IMG/VR virus record: IMGVR_UViG_3300028586_000770
Location: 1-44,098 of that record
Reading direction: 5' to 3' (one strand)
Length of the DNA: 44,098 bases
Origin: a virus
Lineage: Duplodnaviria > Caudoviricetes
Part shown: positions 8,180 through 40,403 of the stretch, one piece after another
Layout: every line of letters begins with the position of its first letter
How positions within the stretch are numbered: position 1 is the first letter of the stretch
The notes under the pieces: generated by a model
Told to the model about the DNA's origin: nothing
The model's database searches: none
Seen by the model: the letters and a program-made list of their open reading frames with translations, nothing else
Made by a program: the position numbers and the translations under genes

Positions 8180-8644
8180 ATGAGTTTCACGCCCTTAGTT
8201 TCGGTTTCGTTTCCGGTAAAAGCACACGTTCGCAAATACCTTCAAAGGCAGTATGGCAGTGCCCATATAGCCTCTAAAACCTCATTTTTGGGGCAGCTTG
8301 TATTAGGCTCCCTTGAGAAGACTTATGAAAAGCCGGAAAAGAATTTACCGGCACATTTTACTTTTACAGTCCTTGTGCCTCAGGGCTATGTAAACCGTGT
8401 GGGCACTACATTGCCGCGCAATACGCAACAGCATCTGGGCGAGCTTTGCACCCATTTGTTTAACATGGCCATGTATGACCACCTTGATGCGGTATCATGG
8501 GGTGGGGGGCAGGTATACCCGGAGCTGCGAAACTTTTTAGAGCGGTATGGTATTACTGAAGATGATATGAAAGTTGAAAGCCTGTACAGAGCTTACTCCA
8601 GGCATTGCAAAAAGAAAGAAAATTTTTTCCCACTACAAAAATAA
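8180..8644 (+). CDS. Putative DNA-binding regulator (candidate late activator)
   Basis: 154 aa; RHH-like N-term (VSFPVKAHVRKYL) and HTH-like C-term (FLERYGITEDDMKVESLYRAYSR); next to a cluster of TGTCC boxes. Confidence 0.5.
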   Translation: MSFTPLVSVSFPVKAHVRKYLQRQYGSAHIASKTSFLGQLVLGSLEKTYEKPEKNLPAHFTFTVLVPQGYVNRVGTTLPRNTQQHLGELCTHLFNMAMYDHLDAVSWGGGQVYPELRNFLERYGITEDDMKVESLYRAYSRHCKKKENFFPLQK

Positions 8645-8969
8645 TGTTAAAATACCTGCTAATCCTTACCAATAAAGGGCGAGCGGTGGGACACATTCGT
8701 AAAAATATATATTATGACAATTAACGATTTTACGGACGACGATATAACGGAGGCAATAACTGTTCATGAGGAGATGGCCTTCGCCCTTGGTTTACCGCCC
8801 GATTTATTAGGCCCGAAGGATAAGGATCCTGGTACCAGTTATAGCGGGACAGTTGGTTGGATATGATGGGCCAAGAAATTCGGAAAACTATAGAAGAAAT
8901 AATGTTAAAATCTTCGTCAATCGCTTTTAACATTGGGCGCGCTTTAGGACATTTTCGTAAAAATAAATA
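8639..8969 (+). repeat. Degenerate ~72-bp direct repeat pair (from 8639 and 8897, 258-bp period)
   Basis: AAATAATGTTAAAAT...GGGCG.GC...GGACA..TTCGTAAAAATA.AT aligns without gaps in both copies. Confidence 0.75.
8714..8866 (+). CDS. 50-aa peptide resembling the portal C-terminal segment
   Basis: Own translation MTINDFTDDDITEAITVHEEMAFALGLPPDLLGPKDKDPGTSYSGTVGWI aligns to portal TIDDKFKD...EAEAANSEILFAIGVDPSLVG; A/T-rich start context. Confidence 0.55.
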   Translation: MTINDFTDDDITEAITVHEEMAFALGLPPDLLGPKDKDPGTSYSGTVGWI

Positions 8970-8977
8970 ATGCACTT

Positions 8978-9448
8978 ATGACATTTAATATAGAAGAGCA
9001 GGTGGCAGGGTTTGCATCGGTAGAACTTTTCCTGATCTCAGAAACCGGTAACTGGCCACTTGTGGTTAACGATGGTAACGCCGGCACAATAACACTTAAT
9101 CCGGAGGTAAATGATGTAGATGGAAGTATCGACCCGGACAGCATAAATATAAGTGATGACCCTAAGGATGATGTGAGCGGCCAGATATGGCCTATTGATA
9201 TACGTTACCTGTTCCTTGCGCGCAATGCGGCTATGGAGCAGCTGCTCGAGCAGTATGCAAATAAGCCCTGCATAGTACGTGGCTGTGGTAATGACGGTAA
9301 TCGTAAGCAATGGGGAACTGACCAGGAACCGCTCTACATGACCTATAAAAACATTTATGGTACCAACATGCAGGACCGCCATGGCATTGAAGTTTCTATA
9401 AAAGGCGACCTGAGTAGTAGGCCGGTATATTTTACAATAATTGAATAA
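8978..9448 (+). CDS. Tail-tube-like structural protein (paralog of 13362-13913)
   Basis: VAGFASVELF and CIVRGCGNDGNRKQWGT parallel VGGINIDIYY and YIVLAEEAGSGRLRQLGS. Confidence 0.5.
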   Translation: MTFNIEEQVAGFASVELFLISETGNWPLVVNDGNAGTITLNPEVNDVDGSIDPDSINISDDPKDDVSGQIWPIDIRYLFLARNAAMEQLLEQYANKPCIVRGCGNDGNRKQWGTDQEPLYMTYKNIYGTNMQDRHGIEVSIKGDLSSRPVYFTIIE

Positions 9449-15152: not shown

Positions 15153-16238
15153 ATGAATTTTAATTACAGGTGGTCGTTAAAGGATGCAGTCTTTACAAAA
15201 AACAAAGGTAAGGTGTTTAGCTGTTTTGCATGCGGTGGCGGCTCTACCATGGGTTATAAGCTTGCCGGCTTTGATGTCATAGGCATTAATGAAATAGACC
15301 CGCGTATGGCCAAGCTTTATGTGGCCAACCATAACCCAAAACATTTATTTATTGAGGGTATACAAAGCTTTAAGCTTAGGGATGACCTGCCTGCAGAATT
15401 ATACAATTTAGATATACTGGACGGATCGCCACCCTGCAGCTCGTTTTCTATGTCCGGAAACCGGGAGTCTGACTGGGGCAAGGAAAAGAAGTTTACCGAG
15501 GGGCAGGCATCACAGGTTCTTGACACGCTCTTTTTCGATTTTATAGACCTGGCAGAAAAACTGCAGCCAAAAGTAGTGGTGGCAGAGAATGTGTCCGGCA
15601 TACTTAAAGGCAATGCCCGGGACTATGTACGTAAAATAATTGTAGCATTTGATAAAGCCGGCTACTTGGTAAAAGAGTTTGAACTTGACAGTTCACAAAT
15701 GGAAGTGCCACAGCGCCGGGAGCGTGTTTTCTTTATTGCCATACGCAAGGATTTAGCAGAGCTGCTACCTAAGCAACAGGGCCTGCTATTTTGCGACTTT
15801 CCTAAACTAAATATGAAGTTCGCCCGCCCGCCAATACCTTTTAGTGAGATCAGAACAAAGGGGTTGAATAATGCGCCCTGGGGAGAGCATGACCAGTGGG
15901 TATGGGATAGGCGAATATATGGCGACAGAAGTTATGTAAATGTATTTGAGCGCCTGCAAAATAAAAGAACAAATTTTAATAGCAGCTTTATCTATGAGCA
16001 TAAACCTATCCCTACTTTATCAAGTTCGGAAGGCTCTAAAATGGCACTGTTTGATGAACCCAGGCGAATGAACTCTACCGAAATGATCTACGCGCAGTCA
16101 TTCCCTGCAGACTACGATTTTGATAGTGACAAATGCAGTAAAATACAATATGTATTAGGAATGAGCGTGCCACCTGTAATGATGGCGCACATAGCGGCCA
16201 GGCTATATGAAGAATGGCAGCCAATTTTTAACCAATAA
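15153..16238 (+). CDS. DNA (cytosine-5)-methyltransferase
   Basis: FACGGG (motif I), GSPPCSSFS (IV), ENV (VI), QRRERVF (VIII), GMSVPP (X). Confidence 0.95.
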   Translation: MNFNYRWSLKDAVFTKNKGKVFSCFACGGGSTMGYKLAGFDVIGINEIDPRMAKLYVANHNPKHLFIEGIQSFKLRDDLPAELYNLDILDGSPPCSSFSMSGNRESDWGKEKKFTEGQASQVLDTLFFDFIDLAEKLQPKVVVAENVSGILKGNARDYVRKIIVAFDKAGYLVKEFELDSSQMEVPQRRERVFFIAIRKDLAELLPKQQGLLFCDFPKLNMKFARPPIPFSEIRTKGLNNAPWGEHDQWVWDRRIYGDRSYVNVFERLQNKRTNFNSSFIYEHKPIPTLSSSEGSKMALFDEPRRMNSTEMIYAQSFPADYDFDSDKCSKIQYVLGMSVPPVMMAHIAARLYEEWQPIFNQ

Positions 16239-16253
16239 GTAACCGTCAAAAAA

Positions 16254-16994
16254 ATGGAATTTAAAACCCTGACATTAGTAACAAAGAATTTAGGAGATTT
16301 GGAAATTAGGCTTGTGCCGAAATCATTAGCAAGAGAGTTGATCGTTAAAAATCACTATAGCAATAAGTGGAATAACGCTGGATTTGGTTTATATAATTTC
16401 GGATTTTTCCGTCCTGAAAGTGATATATGCTTAGGTGTGGCGGTGTACGGCTATACAATGCATCCAAAGTCGAGACTGTTTAAACACCCAAACCCAGCAG
16501 CAATTATGTTAGAGCTTAATCGCATGTGGATATCCGATGAATTAGGTAAAAATGCGGAAAGCTTGCTCATTGCACATTCACTTAAGCAGCTTGCAAAATT
16601 AGATAAAAACATCGTTGCTGTTCAATCATTCGCAGATGGCAGATTAGGCTGTGGAACGATTTATAAGGCTTCTAATTTTAAATACTATGGTAGCCATGAA
16701 ACCGTATTTGCACGAAATAAGAGAACCGGCGAGATTAATCATCATATGAATACTACAAGGATGGATAGTAAAAGCATCTATATACGTAACAATATAGCAT
16801 TTATGCTTGGTGATTTAGAATTTTTTAAAGTAGATACTTACAGGTATATATTTCCGCTGTGTAAACGCTTTGAGTCCAAGTTTAAACAGAAGCCATACCC
16901 TCCTTATAAAAAGGGTTCCATGCTTATAACAATGGATAGAAACAAAGCATTAATTAAGGAGAGATTATTAAAGTTTATTTCTGAATTAGTTTAA
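16254..16994 (+). CDS. mom: Mom-family adenine-modification protein
   Basis: KNHYS, GVAVYG, LELNRMW, NAES, SFADG..GTIYKASNF motifs of Mu Mom-like GNAT proteins. Confidence 0.85.
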   Translation: MEFKTLTLVTKNLGDLEIRLVPKSLARELIVKNHYSNKWNNAGFGLYNFGFFRPESDICLGVAVYGYTMHPKSRLFKHPNPAAIMLELNRMWISDELGKNAESLLIAHSLKQLAKLDKNIVAVQSFADGRLGCGTIYKASNFKYYGSHETVFARNKRTGEINHHMNTTRMDSKSIYIRNNIAFMLGDLEFFKVDTYRYIFPLCKRFESKFKQKPYPPYKKGSMLITMDRNKALIKERLLKFISELV

Positions 16995-28537: not shown

Positions 28538-28540
28538 TGC

Positions 28541-28576
28541 TGTCCTATTAAAAAAATCAAATCAGATCTATTTTTG
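28541..28576 (+). promoter_or_regulatory. Phage-specific promoter TGTCCTA-N21-TATTTTTG
   Basis: Conserved spacing, perfect -7 box; no ORF before the next terminator. Confidence 0.75.
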
Positions 28577-28580
28577 AAGT

Positions 28581-28680
28581 CTCTTTTACATACACCAATA
28601 CTTTTGCCATGAAGTAATTATTTTTCTCTTTGTTGTTTTAAATTTTCCCGCCCTGGCCTGTAAGCCGGGGCGGGTTTTTT
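28581..28680 (+). ncRNA. Putative ~100-nt late small RNA
   Basis: Between the promoter and the strong terminator CCCGCCCTGGC-CTGTAA-GCCGGGGCGGG-T6 (28647-28680); only an ATG-AAG-TAA minigene inside. Confidence 0.55.
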
Positions 28681-28821
28681 ATTGTTGAAATATTTAGGCC
28701 ATTGCTCATTTCGTTTAACTGTAGGAACACGCTGTTTAACCTTTAAACGTATCTACGTCGTCGATTATATAAAAATTGAAGTAGGGGGTTATATAATTTA
28801 GTGAAATAATCACTATTACAT

Positions 28822-29298: not shown

Positions 29299-29577
29299 AT
29301 GGAGGGTAAAAAACTTATAGAAATACAGACAGCTTGCCAATTAGTCACTCAGGAGATTATTGCGAAAAGCAAACGTAAAGAACCAGGTTATATGCTTTTC
29401 AAACTTTCTTGGGCACTTGAGTCAGTCGAAATTTATTTTAATGATTTAAAACGCGAATTGAGCAAAAATTTACTGATTGAAAGCAGTATGCGTGAACATC
29501 GGGAAATGCATAAAATTATTGTAGAACATGCCAGAATATGTGTTGATAAATTAATGCGGTTTTCAGCACGCGCATGA
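29299..29577 (+). CDS. Small helical protein, paralog A1
   Basis: 92 aa, shares GYMLFKLSWALESVEIYFNDLKR with 32707-32991. Confidence 0.8.
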   Translation: MEGKKLIEIQTACQLVTQEIIAKSKRKEPGYMLFKLSWALESVEIYFNDLKRELSKNLLIESSMREHREMHKIIVEHARICVDKLMRFSARA

Positions 29578-29614
29578 CGTCAAATTGGTTTAACATAGAT
29601 CACACTATTTAGGC

Positions 29615-29645
29615 AAAACCCCGCGCTGGCGGGGTTTAGTTTTTT
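29615..29645 (+). terminator. Intrinsic terminator (duplicated at 33029-33059)
   Basis: AAAACCCCGC-loop-GCGGGGTTTAGTTTTT. Confidence 0.8.
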
Positions 29646-29763: not shown

Positions 29764-30093
29764 ATGATTAGCGCAATAGATGCCGGAACAATGACACTTA
29801 GTAATCTAAGCGAAATAGTTAATTGTAACATCGCTCAGGCTAATATTTATAAAATAAAATTATCATGGTGCTTTGAAGATGGAAAAATATGTGGCAGGGT
29901 TAAAAGAGGCTCGTTAACAGTGTGGAAAAAATATTATGAGGGTGAGCACATTCATATATTGCTTGCGCGTATGAATTGGGATTTTAGTTGCTACATTAAT
30001 AAGCTGGGCGAAGCGTTCAGAGCAGAGCGTGATCGTAAGGAAGTTGAAAGTTGGAAAACCTCTTTGGACTCTGGAAAGTTTGCCATGAAGTAA
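29764..30093 (+). CDS. Accessory hypothetical protein
   Basis: 109 aa ORF with A-rich start context. Confidence 0.6.
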   Translation: MISAIDAGTMTLSNLSEIVNCNIAQANIYKIKLSWCFEDGKICGRVKRGSLTVWKKYYEGEHIHILLARMNWDFSCYINKLGEAFRAERDRKEVESWKTSLDSGKFAMK

Positions 30094-30215
30094 TACAAAT
30101 AATAGAAATCGTTTATTTAGAGGCGCTAAAACTGAGATACTATAACTTAGGGAAACTATGTAGTAATTTGACATAATCTTATAAAAGATATTAGGCTTAG
30201 GGCTTTAGTTTTGCA

Positions 30216-30284
30216 ATATCTTAACAACATAAGGTGTGGTATCCCATTTTTATGATACTCTCTCTCTAACGAGAGAGTTTTTTT
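30216..30284 (+). ncRNA. Putative sRNA 1 of tandem array
   Basis: TAGTTTTG box 30206-30213; 5' hairpin ATATCTTA/TAAGGTGT; TGGT; terminator CTCTCTC/GAGAGAG + T7. Confidence 0.6.
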
Positions 30285-30342
30285 ATGTAAGTTTCTGAAC
30301 CTATTATGTAATTTTACTTACTTAATTACAAGTAGATTTATC

Positions 30343-30417
30343 ATATCTACGTTGAAGCAGAAAATGTAGATATTGGTCCATTTCCGCCCTCTCCAGTCAC
30401 AGAGGAGAGGGTTTTTT
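30343..30417 (+). ncRNA. Putative sRNA 2 of tandem array
   Basis: TAGATTTA box 30333-30340; hairpin ATATCTAC/GTAGATAT; TGGTCCATTT; terminator CCCTCTCC/GGAGAGGG + T6. Confidence 0.6.
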
Positions 30418-30476
30418 ATAACTCATATGAGCAATGATGTAAAATGTTTTAACCACAATAATTGTAATTTTACCAA

Positions 30477-30543
30477 ACTACATTTTAGAGAGGTGTAGTA
30501 CTGGTTAGTATTATTCTTCCCTCCCTTACACCGGGGAGGGTTT
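30477..30543 (+). ncRNA. Putative sRNA 3 of tandem array
   Basis: TAATTTTA box 30465-30472; hairpin ACTACA/TGTAGT; TGGTTAG; terminator CCCTCCC/GGGAGGG + TTT. Confidence 0.55.
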
Positions 30544-30760
30544 ATCTTTATCCAACACTCAATGTATACCAAATGGCGGCATTAGCAAAATTTCCTCTGC
30601 ATTACTATGTCATCTACTAATTATATTCATAAAAGTAGATCTGAAACAAAGAATAAATAGATAGTCTTTCAATTTCATAAATTAATAGAAAGCGAAGCAT
30701 TATTGAAAATTATTACTAAATTAGGCAAAGTTCTAATTAGCAAATTGTAATAAATAGACT

Positions 30761-31396
30761 ATGTGTTACTACGCGAAACCTCCGGAAGATTTAACTGAAG
30801 CTGAAAAGGAATTTGCGGCGCGCTTTGGCAGTCCCGAAACTTTTATATCAGGTAAATATACCAATGGCTTTGCGCACCCACAAATGCCGGTTATATTGGA
30901 CGAGAATCCGCACAATATCATTATGGCAGAATGGGGCCTTGTACCAAACTTTGCCCCGGATAAAACGATCAATGCAAAAACGCTTAACGCTAAGATCGAG
31001 ACTGTAGAAACTACAGCCATGTACAGGGATAGCGCAAACAGGCGCTGTCTGGTCCTGCTGGAAGAGTTTTATGAGTGGAAGTGGCATAATCCTACTGCAA
31101 AAACATCTACTAAAGACAAATATGCAATATCGCTTAAAGGGCGAAAGCTTTTTGCGGTGGCAGGGGTTTACAACGTATGGCGCGGGGAACCTACCTTTAC
31201 CATTGTCACAACTGAGGCTAATACTCTTATGTCCGACATCCACAATACAAAAAAAAGGATGCCGGTAGTATTACACCGGCAGGAAGAAAAACTGTGGCTT
31301 GGCCATGATGCGGTACCGCTTTTTAAAGACCGCACAGAGATTGATCTACAGGCTGTAAACCTGGATCAGCTGCCACAGCAGGCAAGTTTATTTTAA
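30761..31396 (+). CDS. SOS response-associated peptidase (SRAP, YedK/HMCES family)
   Basis: N-terminal MC, WGLVP, TLNAKIET, RCLV..EEFYEW, IHNTKKRMPVVL. Confidence 0.93.
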   Translation: MCYYAKPPEDLTEAEKEFAARFGSPETFISGKYTNGFAHPQMPVILDENPHNIIMAEWGLVPNFAPDKTINAKTLNAKIETVETTAMYRDSANRRCLVLLEEFYEWKWHNPTAKTSTKDKYAISLKGRKLFAVAGVYNVWRGEPTFTIVTTEANTLMSDIHNTKKRMPVVLHRQEEKLWLGHDAVPLFKDRTEIDLQAVNLDQLPQQASLF

Positions 31397-32706: not shown

Positions 32707-32991
32707 ATGGAAAATCAAAAACTTATTGCGATACATACGGCCTGTCAGCTTGTAAGTCAGGATATTATCATGAAGAGTGAAGTTAATGGAAAAGGGTATA
32801 TGCTTTTCAAGCTTTCGTGGGCACTTGAGTCGGTAGAAATTTACTTTAATGATCTAAAGCGTGATCTGAGCGATGATTTACTAAGTGAAAGCAGTAAGCG
32901 TGACCACCGAGAAATGCATAAAATTCTTGTAGAAAGTGCCCGACTGTGCGTTGATAAATTGATGCGATTTTCAGCGCGCGCAAAATATTAA
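32707..32991 (+). CDS. Small helical protein, paralog A2
   Basis: 94 aa close paralog of 29299-29577 with conserved flanking DNA. Confidence 0.8.
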   Translation: MENQKLIAIHTACQLVSQDIIMKSEVNGKGYMLFKLSWALESVEIYFNDLKRDLSDDLLSESSKRDHREMHKILVESARLCVDKLMRFSARAKY

Positions 32992-33169
32992 TTTTCAGTT
33001 TTTTATATATAGATCACATTTTTTAAGCAAAACCCCGCACTTGGCGGGGTTTAGTTTTTACGTTAGCTACTATTATTCGCTACCGAGTGCTGCAGGTTAA
33101 AAAGTCCGAATTTTATACAGGAATTAAAAAATTAATATTGGATCCTCCTGCGGGGTGGGTTCGGTTATT

Positions 33170-38435: not shown

Positions 38436-39029
38436 TTACTGTATTACTTTATGTTTCATGGCCTTGCGCACAAAGCCGGCTTTGTTTTTAACTCCTGCAG
38501 CTATAAATAGGTTTTGCTTATGGGTATTAAGCGTGCTGTGTGCCATATTAAGATCGTTAGCAATAGCTTTATCCGGCTTATCGCTTGCTAATGCCTGGCT
38601 AATTTTTACCTGGTGCGGTGTAAGCTTGTGGCCATTTAGCATAATGCATTTACTTTTCCATGCAAGGCAGCGGCAGTTGGCGCTACACCTAAAGTTTTCT
38701 GAAGGGGCGGCAGCACCGTTGGCTAAAAAATCGGGAGTGCTATCAGCATCACCATACATGCAAAAAGCAAATTCCTCCAGGGCAGCATCATGATCCATAT
38801 CGCGCAGGTCGTGCATAGCTGCAGGATCATTAAGCATGAGCTCAAAAATTTCAGCTTTTTGCGCCGGGTTAATTTGTGCAAATGGTATAGTGCGCCCGTT
38901 GCTCAGTGCAAATACCTTACGGGTTTCGCGAATGCCAAACAGTTCTGTACGATGATCGCCGGGAATTAAACCGGCAGGCAGTGAATGCACTTGCAAATCT
39001 TGTTTTTTTGTTTTACATTTGTCTTTCAT
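38436..39029 (-). CDS. LuxR-type HTH transcriptional regulator
   Basis: C-terminal LTPHQVKISQALASDKPDKAIANDLNMAHSTLNTHKQNL...GVKNK; Cys cluster before the HTH. Confidence 0.85.
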   Translation of the reverse strand: MKDKCKTKKQDLQVHSLPAGLIPGDHRTELFGIRETRKVFALSNGRTIPFAQINPAQKAEIFELMLNDPAAMHDLRDMDHDAALEEFAFCMYGDADSTPDFLANGAAAPSENFRCSANCRCLAWKSKCIMLNGHKLTPHQVKISQALASDKPDKAIANDLNMAHSTLNTHKQNLFIAAGVKNKAGFVRKAMKHKVIQ

Positions 39030-39087
39030 AAATTCTTAGTTAAAGGGATTTACTTTTAAGAACCTGATGTTCGCGCATCAGGTTTTT

Positions 39088-39729
39088 TTAATTTAAAGGA
39101 GTTACTGTGCAGGCTTTGCAATCACATTTACCGATGCTGCCAGGTAAATGAAATGATATTTGCAGGCGTTTACTATGATCCGCCTTGTGTTTGCTTTTGT
39201 GATCTTTTATGTTTTCTGCAGTTGTTTCTCGAACTAAATCAAGGATTTCTTTAGATGGAAGTCCATTGAATTTATCAATAAACTTATCTTGGAAATCATG
39301 GCCTACAGCTTTTATAACTTCTGAAATTGAACCGGCAAAAAATTCAGATGTGCGCTGTTTATCATAATGTAGGGTAATTGTATTTTGAGGATTAAAATGT
39401 CTTCGTCTCAAAAGATCAGTAAAGCTTTGCCCTGCGTTAGGAAAAGGCAATGGGGGAACTTCGATGCCTTCTTTACGCAAATCGTCTGCTAACTCCTGCA
39501 AAATGTCAAAGAAACCACCGCTTCTGGGTTTAAAATCAAAAGGCTTGCCTCTTTCGGCAGTCTCTTCAGCCTTTGTTTCATCTGCTTTTGCCGTTTGTGC
39601 TTTGTCTACCTGTTCCTGGTTAAAAGTCTCAAAAGGTTTAAGTTTACCTAATATATTGGCCCTTACATCACCAAATTTTAAATTCTCGTCATTTAAGACT
39701 GCTTCTAAATCTTCAATTTTTACGTACAT
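39088..39729 (-). CDS. Early hypothetical protein with C-terminal Cys cluster (CDCKAC)
   Basis: 213 aa; followed by hairpin AACCTGATG/CATCAGGTT (39061-39088). Confidence 0.65.
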   Translation of the reverse strand: MYVKIEDLEAVLNDENLKFGDVRANILGKLKPFETFNQEQVDKAQTAKADETKAEETAERGKPFDFKPRSGGFFDILQELADDLRKEGIEVPPLPFPNAGQSFTDLLRRRHFNPQNTITLHYDKQRTSEFFAGSISEVIKAVGHDFQDKFIDKFNGLPSKEILDLVRETTAENIKDHKSKHKADHSKRLQISFHLPGSIGKCDCKACTVTPLN

Positions 39730-39760
39730 AATATGGTTGTTTTAATTTTTCTATATTTGC

Positions 39761-39833
39761 AGTTCTCATTGTAAATTGATATTGGTTTAACAATTTTGAG
39801 AACTAACCCGGCAGAGCATGTGCCGGGTTTTTT
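39761..39833 (+). ncRNA. Putative sRNA of cassette B1
   Basis: TATATTTG 39752-39759; hairpin AGTTCTCA/TGAGAACT with ATTGGTTTAA near the loop; terminator AACCCGGCA/TGCCGGGTT + Ts. Confidence 0.7.
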
Positions 39834-39916
39834 ACTTTGTAAATGTTTTCTGTCATATGTCATAATTGATTAGGCCAAGTACATCTTTAGATTTGTCAGG
39901 TAAAACCCCAACTTTA

Positions 39917-40213: not shown

Positions 40214-40268
40214 TTTCAATTAAACTCTACTTTATTTATTCAATTTTTAATTATTGCTATATTTGCCG

Positions 40269-40344
40269 CACTCATACGTTATAGTAAAAGAGTTAGTCAC
40301 CTTTTCATTGAGTATACGCCCAGCAATTAACCGCTGGGTTTTTT
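40269..40344 (+). ncRNA. Putative sRNA of cassette B2
   Basis: TATATTTG 40258-40265; hairpin ACTCA/TGAGT; terminator CCCAGC/GCTGGG + T6. Confidence 0.65.
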
Positions 40345-40403
40345 ATAACTATTTGTGCATTATATGTAAGCTTAACTTAATAATTTAAGCTTACTTTTAT
40401 AAC

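Follow-up and report, generated by a model that had tools for sequence, protein, structure and literature searches.

Three short units in tandem, which fill part of a 667-nt gap between a 109-aa gene and an SRAP gene, are likely, judged from the sequence, to be genes for three short RNAs that belong to no catalogued family, and the array formed by them is real and probably functional. The window, i.e. the whole stretch of DNA that was analysed, is an entire virus record of 44,098 nt, and the same DNA is embedded in a 355,586-nt contig. The coordinates and letters given for the array by a first-pass annotation agree with the sequence, and its view of the units as stand-alone small-RNA genes is still the best reading, considering a layout beyond chance, an A at the predicted +1 in all the three units and a divergence of unit 2 that spares its stems. 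The features concerned are as follows.

29764..30093, + strand: 109-aa gene, function not assigned, upstream of the array; relatives are found without the array
30206..30213, + strand: -7 box TAGTTTTG of the unit 1 promoter, exact sigma-A consensus, predicted start 30218
30216..30284, + strand: unit 1 RNA, predicted at ~66 nt (from 30218 to ~30283), terminator 30257-30278 plus U7
30333..30340, + strand: promoter-like box TAGATTTA of unit 2, predicted start 30345
30343..30417, + strand: unit 2 RNA, predicted at ~73 nt (from 30345 to ~30417), pair probabilities near 1
30373-30498, + strand: TTG frame of 41 aa, overlapping units 2-3
30423-30572, - strand: TTG frame of 49 aa, overlapping units 2-3
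30465..30472, + strand: promoter-like box TAATTTTA of unit 3, predicted start 30477, covered by a diverged contig
30477..30545, + strand: unit 3 RNA, predicted at ~68 nt, 5' hairpin of 7-10 bp with probability ~0.6 at 37 C
30761..31396, + strand: SRAP (SOS response associated peptidase) gene downstream of the array (PF02586, E 3e-37)

Layout and predicted folds of the units

The three units, described before as having a period of about 130 bp, are spaced by 127 and 132 bp as measured. As also noticed before, the 5' hairpin begins 2, 2 and 4 nt after the box in units 1, 2 and 3, respectively, and pyrimidine/purine terminators followed by T are located at 30257-30278, 30386-30412 and 30519-30540. 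An intrinsic terminator is present in all the three units, the T tail of unit 3 being broken (TTTATCTTT). Units 1 and 2 have the ATATCT start, TGGT and CCATTT in common, with a gap of 3 and 0 nt between the last two. The sigma-A consensus TAnnTTTG, with the box placed at -12 to -5 (PMC9723704), is exact only in the box of unit 1, and the last base is A in boxes 2 and 3. An additional TAATTTTA box is present upstream of the unit 2 box, at 30310-30317. Moreover, an A lies five bases past the box in each unit (30218, 30345 and 30477). The folding z-scores are -3.6, -4.8 and -2.2 on the + strand and -3.1, -3.6 and -1.5 on the - strand, and the lower values favour the + strand. The statement that the region is free of ORFs holds for ATG frames of at least 25 aa, none of which occurs in the array, and fails for TTG frames, since the two listed above overlap units 2-3. 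An inverted repeat, TATGT-N9-ACATA, is found at 30157-30175, 30-50 nt upstream of the unit 1 box, and TATGTAA-like words occur before or after every unit; together they are a possible operator.

When folded from their predicted starts, units 2 and 3 retain the hairpin, the open linker and the terminator. Unit 2 is composed of a hairpin of 9-11 bp, a 12-nt linker (TGGTCCATTTCC) and a 9-bp terminator with a U tail, and unit 3 has a 19-nt linker with TGGTTAG and a terminator of 7-8 bp with a broken U tail. In unit 1, the fold with a 5' hairpin at 30216-30237 and an open linker has a probability of ~0.55 even from 30215, and the fold from 30218 leaves 10 nt open, followed by a hairpin which absorbs the TGGT..CCATTT linker. 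Thus one fold common to all the three units, as suggested earlier, was not obtained, because unit 1 refolds at its predicted start.

To put numbers on the layout, a scan rule was used that combines a TAnnTTT(G/A) box, a hairpin no more than 6 nt away, a linker and a terminator. The window gave three matches, all of them within the array, and when the 667-nt gap was shuffled 1000 times with its dinucleotides kept, 999 shuffles gave no match and one a single match, a significance that is overstated because the rule was written after the units were seen. In other loci, there were two distinct single matches in 367,684 nt and two in 478,597 nt, the latter set being partly picked by a unit-1 model, and tandem matches were found in neither set. 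The layout thus occurs singly in Flavobacterium DNA, and it was not seen in tandem elsewhere. One lone chromosomal unit of the same layout (genome G122, L283 1501-1576, - strand), with the box TATCTTTG and a CCCTTTC/GAGAGGG terminator, is located directly after an acyl-CoA-dehydrogenase-like gene, and its linker is unlike the array's.

Kinship, divergence and homologues

The proposal that the three units are paralogues is likely to hold for units 2 and 3, whose likeness is beyond shuffles under all nulls (matched by 1, 37 and 72 of 5000 structure-preserving shuffles under three nulls, 72 with the terminator held fixed), and is weak for unit 1. The likeness of units 1 and 2 was matched by 22, 179 and 794 of 5000 shuffles, the last value, with the terminator held fixed, being not significant, and that of units 1 and 3 by 21, 654 and 373. 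The likeness of unit 1 to its sisters is mostly terminator polarity. On these sequence comparisons, units 2 and 3 are likely to be paralogous and unit 1 is possibly paralogous to them. Apart from the terminators, repeat finders revealed no sequence-level tandem repeat in the array, and the single-unit covariance models give the sister units 11-23 bits, level with unrelated terminator units. In addition, all the three units contain TGGT, as opposed to 1/11 intergenic box-plus-terminator units from elsewhere (p=0.011), and all the three have a C(C/T)CTC arm in the terminator, as opposed to 0/11 (p=0.003); the 11 comparison units were drawn from 766,530 nt and both motifs were picked post hoc.

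The sole homologue found is a single 170-nt contig (depth 2.3) from sequencing run X1, which is a possible source run of the window. No RNA run is among those listed as containing this DNA, and in another run, X3, a small share is present, covering SRAP alone. It aligns over 30333-30485 with 20 substitutions (four of which, near the contig ends, are without listed positions) and 5 gap letters, and in it unit 2 is followed, as in the window, by the spacer and the first part of unit 3. So far, the array family has been seen in two genotypes. Over 30364-30417 there are 7 substitutions and no gap, and changes fall on 0/28 paired and 7/21 unpaired positions, the 5-nt T tail being excluded from the count (Fisher p=0.0014). 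A change at 30363, outside the 28 positions counted, breaks the top pair of the unit 2 5' stem, and if it is counted, 1/29 paired positions changed and p is about 0.007 (by hand). The 3' arm of the 5' hairpin is identical at 10/10 bases. The linker keeps TGGT and CAT and differs at 4/12 bases, the spacer has eight listed substitutions and three indels, and indels in the copy put the 41-aa TTG frame out of register. Because the stems were spared while unpaired positions changed, unit 2 looks as if it were under selection. The first-pass annotation had taken the sequence to covary under a conserved structure, but no compensatory change is seen in the one diverged copy and the three units do not permit a column-wise alignment; what is found is therefore conservation, not covariation.

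The comparison with Rfam suggested earlier gave 0 matches in the window at gathering score. At E<=10, nine weak matches near the array were all well under threshold, and neither the CRISPR-repeat models over the units nor the FopS model matched. BLAST of the region against 50,697 phage records was blank, and plasmids gave a single chance match of 40 nt. Among 401 Flavobacterium genomes, six had short AT-rich chance matches and none a homologue; the terminator-plus-TGGT pattern was found in 0/401 of these genomes. Four pattern scans of viral contigs were made. Two of them gave 2 and 1 matches, within coding DNA, and another gave 66, plain terminators apart from 2-3 that carry a box and share no hairpin with the array. 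The fourth, covering 26/64 parts, gave at least 120 loci, with box and terminator together in none. The single-unit covariance models, each run on 150 genomes at E<=0.05, had matches in 3, 0 and 19 genomes, and inspection revealed these to be gene-end terminators, a leader or coding DNA. Model R1 gave one chance match in five genomes with distant prophages, and the three models gave a single match in five virus records, a tRNA remnant plus terminator. Since each of these models was built from one sequence, they may miss distant kin. Furthermore, the array was not seen near the SRAP relatives (42-48% identity, 14 loci). For a separate locus (L248 1501-1620, - strand, genome G114), a hairpin plus terminator was noticed in the leader of an outer-membrane-receptor-like gene, which is a candidate attenuator.

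Near-identical repeats, spacers and cas genes are the hallmarks of a CRISPR array. That the units are not such an array, as was stated from the start, is borne out by the absence of near-identical repeats and of any Cas family among the 58 proteins.

Proposed function and rival explanations

Our first choice, held tentatively and at less than even confidence, is that the array encodes three sigma-A-driven sibling sRNAs of 66-73 nt, which have a shared scaffold and pair with host mRNAs through different linkers. The host primary sigma factor would transcribe each unit from the A five bases past the box, and the units would be transcribed separately, also in the lysogen. They may have arisen by duplication, with a fair case for units 2 and 3 and a weak one for unit 1. 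The 5' hairpin and the terminator would serve as a protective scaffold, and the diverged linkers could be seeds with different targets, as in GibS/FopS and AgvB/AsxR, so that the siblings would act in trans and repress or tune host mRNAs by linker pairing. Base-pairing is preferred because it is the mode of action of the intergenic sRNAs characterised in the phylum and because the AgvB/AsxR prophage family has a shared scaffold with a variable pairing segment. GibS and FopS pair near start codons (PMC7366714, PMC11697453), base-pairing of Rfp18 is supported by prediction and deletion (PMC9723704), and sRNA families occupy prophage moron sites (PMC4104026). It counts against pairing that the conserved portion of unit 2 is not the presumed seed and that unit 1 buries its linker when folded from its predicted start.

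Common start-codon contexts are matched by the complements of three linkers, those of units 1 and 2 and of the diverged copy, AAATGG and ATATGA being the sixth and fifth commonest among 289 crude starts. However, the linkers as start-codon antisense were rejected, since all the four target tests on phage and other Flavobacterium starts, a search that the first-pass annotation had suggested, were at chance level. Pairing of the linkers to 58 phage start regions showed no gain over shuffles (35, 180 and 21 of 200), and none was found when accessibility was included for 57 starts and 7 RNA units. The 289 crude host-type starts, from 400 kb of genome G111, which is not the true host, showed no bias (12, 70 and 88 of 100). 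In 101 genomes, linker complements lay at a start codon in 1/29 and 3/30 inspected loci (for the second pattern 30/37 matches were inspected), and these loci have no gene in common. A conserved exposed seed was not found either, as 4/12 linker bases vary and no target appeared in phage or other Flavobacterium genes. None of the functions offered earlier (seed-pairing regulator, protein sponge or anti-defence decoy) gained positive evidence.

Protein decoys and mere terminators are close rivals of the base-pairing reading. The units could be expressed sRNA decoys, whose hairpin, UGGU and terminator titrate a host RNA-binding or RNA-sensing defence protein, an explanation which we consider unlikely but worth keeping in sight. 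It is favoured by the conserved element being a scaffold and four bases: all the copies retain the scaffold and, next to the 5' hairpin, a motif of 4 nt, which is not long enough for a seed, 4/12 linker bases vary and the target tests are all blank. An example of a partner is an RRM protein of the RbpB kind, for which three copies would raise the dose, and RbpB binds the members of a paralogous sRNA family in their single-stranded parts (PMC11697453). The slot also carries variable accessory genes. On the other hand, no partner protein gene co-travels with the array and the 109-aa neighbour occurs without it, no neighbouring gene matches the defence models at E<=0.001, and PADLOC is blank for 7/8 neighbours and gives E 0.0012 for one. 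Moreover, the hairpin loops vary in length and sequence between units, and unit 1 may fail to form the hairpin-UGGU shape. The more specific proposal of a dose-amplified RNA decoy battery, in which the hairpin-plus-UGGU shape soaks up either a global regulator of the RRM type or an anti-phage protein that senses RNA, is quite improbable in our estimation; if true, it would be an RNA-only counter-defence or host-reprogramming cassette, for which no description in Bacteroidota phages was found in the literature searched. It is likewise conceivable, with a low probability, that only the terminators matter, as a stack or as promoter/terminator shells of lost cargo that insulate SRAP from read-through, in which case the short RNAs would be absent or functionless. 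Upstream of unit 1, no further terminator was found back to the 109-aa gene, terminators of the CCCTC/GAGGG type are widespread in phages (nearly all the 66 viral matches are plain terminators), and TAnnTTTR boxes are abundant in AT-rich DNA. The lack of a homologue in 401 genomes, or by model in 150 each, means that nothing is widely conserved, which leaves room for this reading. Yet it leaves unexplained the box and the second hairpin at fixed distances in 3/3 units, the A at box+5 in 3/3, and the unchanged 3' arm of the unit 2 5' hairpin (10/10).

The RNAs could also be anti-sRNAs (RNA sponges) of the AgvB type, whose linkers would pair with sRNA seeds of the host or of rival phages. Their plan is that of AgvB/AsxR, i.e. 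short and prophage-borne, the scaffold being common to the members and the pairing part variable (PMC4104026), and sponging would account for the blank mRNA target tests, but linker pairing, be it among the array units or to the other four sRNA-like units in the window, is not above shuffles and the variable part is central, not 5', so that we rate this as very unlikely. Least probable of all, and doubtful in each of its forms, is that the units mimic CRISPR repeats (as RNA anti-CRISPRs), encode small peptides or serve as antisense antitoxins of opposite-strand small ORFs. In their favour, the units look like short RNAs with promoters of their own in an accessory slot of a prophage, and the stem core of units 2-3 resembles what we take to be the stems of type V-A repeats. 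In favour of an antitoxin, a 19-codon ATG frame is antisense to unit 2 and a minus-strand TACTTTTA box at 30630-30637 faces the array, whereas the minus-strand ATG frames, of 8 and 19 codons, are not hydrophobic and none is in unit 3. The blank Rfam CRISPR-repeat models at E<=10 and a unit 2 loop of 9-15 nt speak against the mimics, and Racrs are solitary and defined by >=90% identity to known repeats (PMC10651486). A peptide has against it the lack of any ATG frame of at least 25 aa and the 41-aa frame being shifted in the copy.

The array would work like prophage-borne sibling sRNAs, a known kind, and it is not FopS, AgvB or any Rfam family. OmrA/OmrB and PrrF1/PrrF2 are arranged head-to-tail on chromosomes, each gene with its own promoter and terminator, and have a near-identical seed, while the array units are prophage-borne and have only TGGT and the terminator polarity in common. 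Both are given as duplicated sRNA pairs in a preprint (bioRxiv 10.64898/2026.05.13.724894). AgvB/AsxR (EcOnc01-03) of E. coli O157:H7 are RNAs of 51-60 nt that end in a terminator and lie in an accessory slot of temperate phages as the array does, and their related members combine a common scaffold with a pairing segment that varies, as proposed for the array RNAs (PMC4104026). They are bound to Hfq, one per prophage 3' of PR' and with proven sRNA targets, unlike the three in tandem here; their 5' end is variable and ~42 nt at the 3' end are conserved, whereas the array has a central variable linker and no sequence likeness (PMC4104026). The 5' end of the array RNAs is paired and their 3' halves are far from identical, which does not fit the AgvB type. 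FopS/GibS of Bacteroides thetaiotaomicron are from the same phylum and form a paralogous family with a sigma-A-type promoter and an intrinsic terminator (PMC11697453, PMC7366714), and FopS is also present in a phage (PMC11697453). FopS has a single-stranded 5' seed (R1) that is conserved, one hairpin and 12-15 chromosomal copies (PMC11697453), whereas the array has a 5' hairpin, a poorly conserved linker of 12-19 nt and no Rfam match. The 5' hairpin in units 2 and 3 and the lack of a match to the FopS model ruled out the array as FopS. Rfp18 and the independent sRNAs of Flavobacterium psychrophilum, a species of the likely host genus, are structured and intergenic and have TAnnTTTG promoters, and Rfp18 is conserved between species, its third stem-loop being the predicted pairing part (PMC9723704). 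The array, in contrast, was not found in 401 genomes of the genus, and it is set apart from the Rfp sRNAs by description only. To our knowledge, regulation by small RNAs in Bacteroidota does not involve Hfq or Shine-Dalgarno pairing, and a handful of cases are known; a literature search found no case in phages of Flavobacterium. Papers describing an array of this kind in phages of Bacteroidota were likewise not found in chiefly open-access literature, covered by listings and abstract starts. A compact cassette of three RNA genes, gained and lost at a cargo slot, would give direct access to how these phages tune their hosts by RNA; the concept itself is unchanged, for prophage sRNAs and tandem sibling sRNAs are already known.

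The phage, its cargo slot and other candidate RNAs

The window encodes a tyrosine integrase, tape measure, terminase, holin and endolysin. These integrase, structural and lysis genes, and the same DNA within the 355,586-nt contig, indicate that the phage is most likely a prophage. Among annotated phages, Polaribacter phage Leef_1 has the nearest terminase (50%), and the nearest relatives of the SRAP protein are Flavobacterium proteins (48%); a member of the Flavobacteriaceae is inferred as the host. The closest phages are G406 and G408, with terminases 98% and 77% identical, respectively. They have the lysis/tail block and the leftward early block in common with the window and other genes in between, and both the array and SRAP are absent from this slot in the two. 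The array is thus swappable and rare accessory cargo, since it is missing from the two closest phages, which hold other genes there. A 71% relative of the 109-aa gene precedes different cargo, and an atlas search with this neighbour gave no usable match. The flanks of the slot are formed by a duplicated 92/94-aa gene (77% identical), each copy with its own terminator. The duplicates, at 29299-29640 and 32707-33055 (+ strand) with matching leader and terminator, enclose the array and SRAP and are a possible recombination scar.

Besides the array, several other units in the window resemble sRNA genes, one of which could be a fourth, distant relative.

28599..28681, + strand: possible distant relative of the array units, with a TACTTTTG box, a U-rich open body and a unit-3-like terminator

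In the stretch 28540-28681 (+ strand), which corresponds to L121 4886-5062 (- strand) in G406 and to L120 435-605 in G408, the TACTTTTG box is followed by CATGAAGTAA, an ATG-AAG-TAA minigene that is the same in the window, G406 and G408. For the 28599 unit, a 32-nt terminator stretch is identical in all of them, and the last base of its box is G in the window and A in G408, the box being unmatched in G406. By sequence, this unit is a better conserved sRNA candidate than the array. A CTGTCCTATT motif upstream of it recurs before other genes (10347 and the 20130 region). At 39015-39090 (+ strand), there is a TACATTTG box plus terminator, and the short transcript predicted from it would be antisense to the start codon and leader of a LuxR-type gene (38436-39029, - strand), a candidate cis-antisense RNA. 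In the immunity/early region, two more units, each consisting of a TATATTTG box, ~50-60 nt and a terminator, are located at 39752-39834 and 40259-40345 (both + strand), and the former contains GATATTGGT, as does unit 2.

Some further observations concern the cargo of these phages. A C5 DNA methylase gene followed by a Mom-family DNA modification gene (15153-16994, + strand) makes an anti-restriction pair in the window. In G406 (L121 2810-3619), an adenine-methylase-like gene is inserted next to a ParB-like gene, both named from the look of their translations, and the window is without it there. Moreover, two non-coding segments of the window, 8639-8732 and 8896-8990, are similar to each other, and one stretch in G406 and one in G408 match both.
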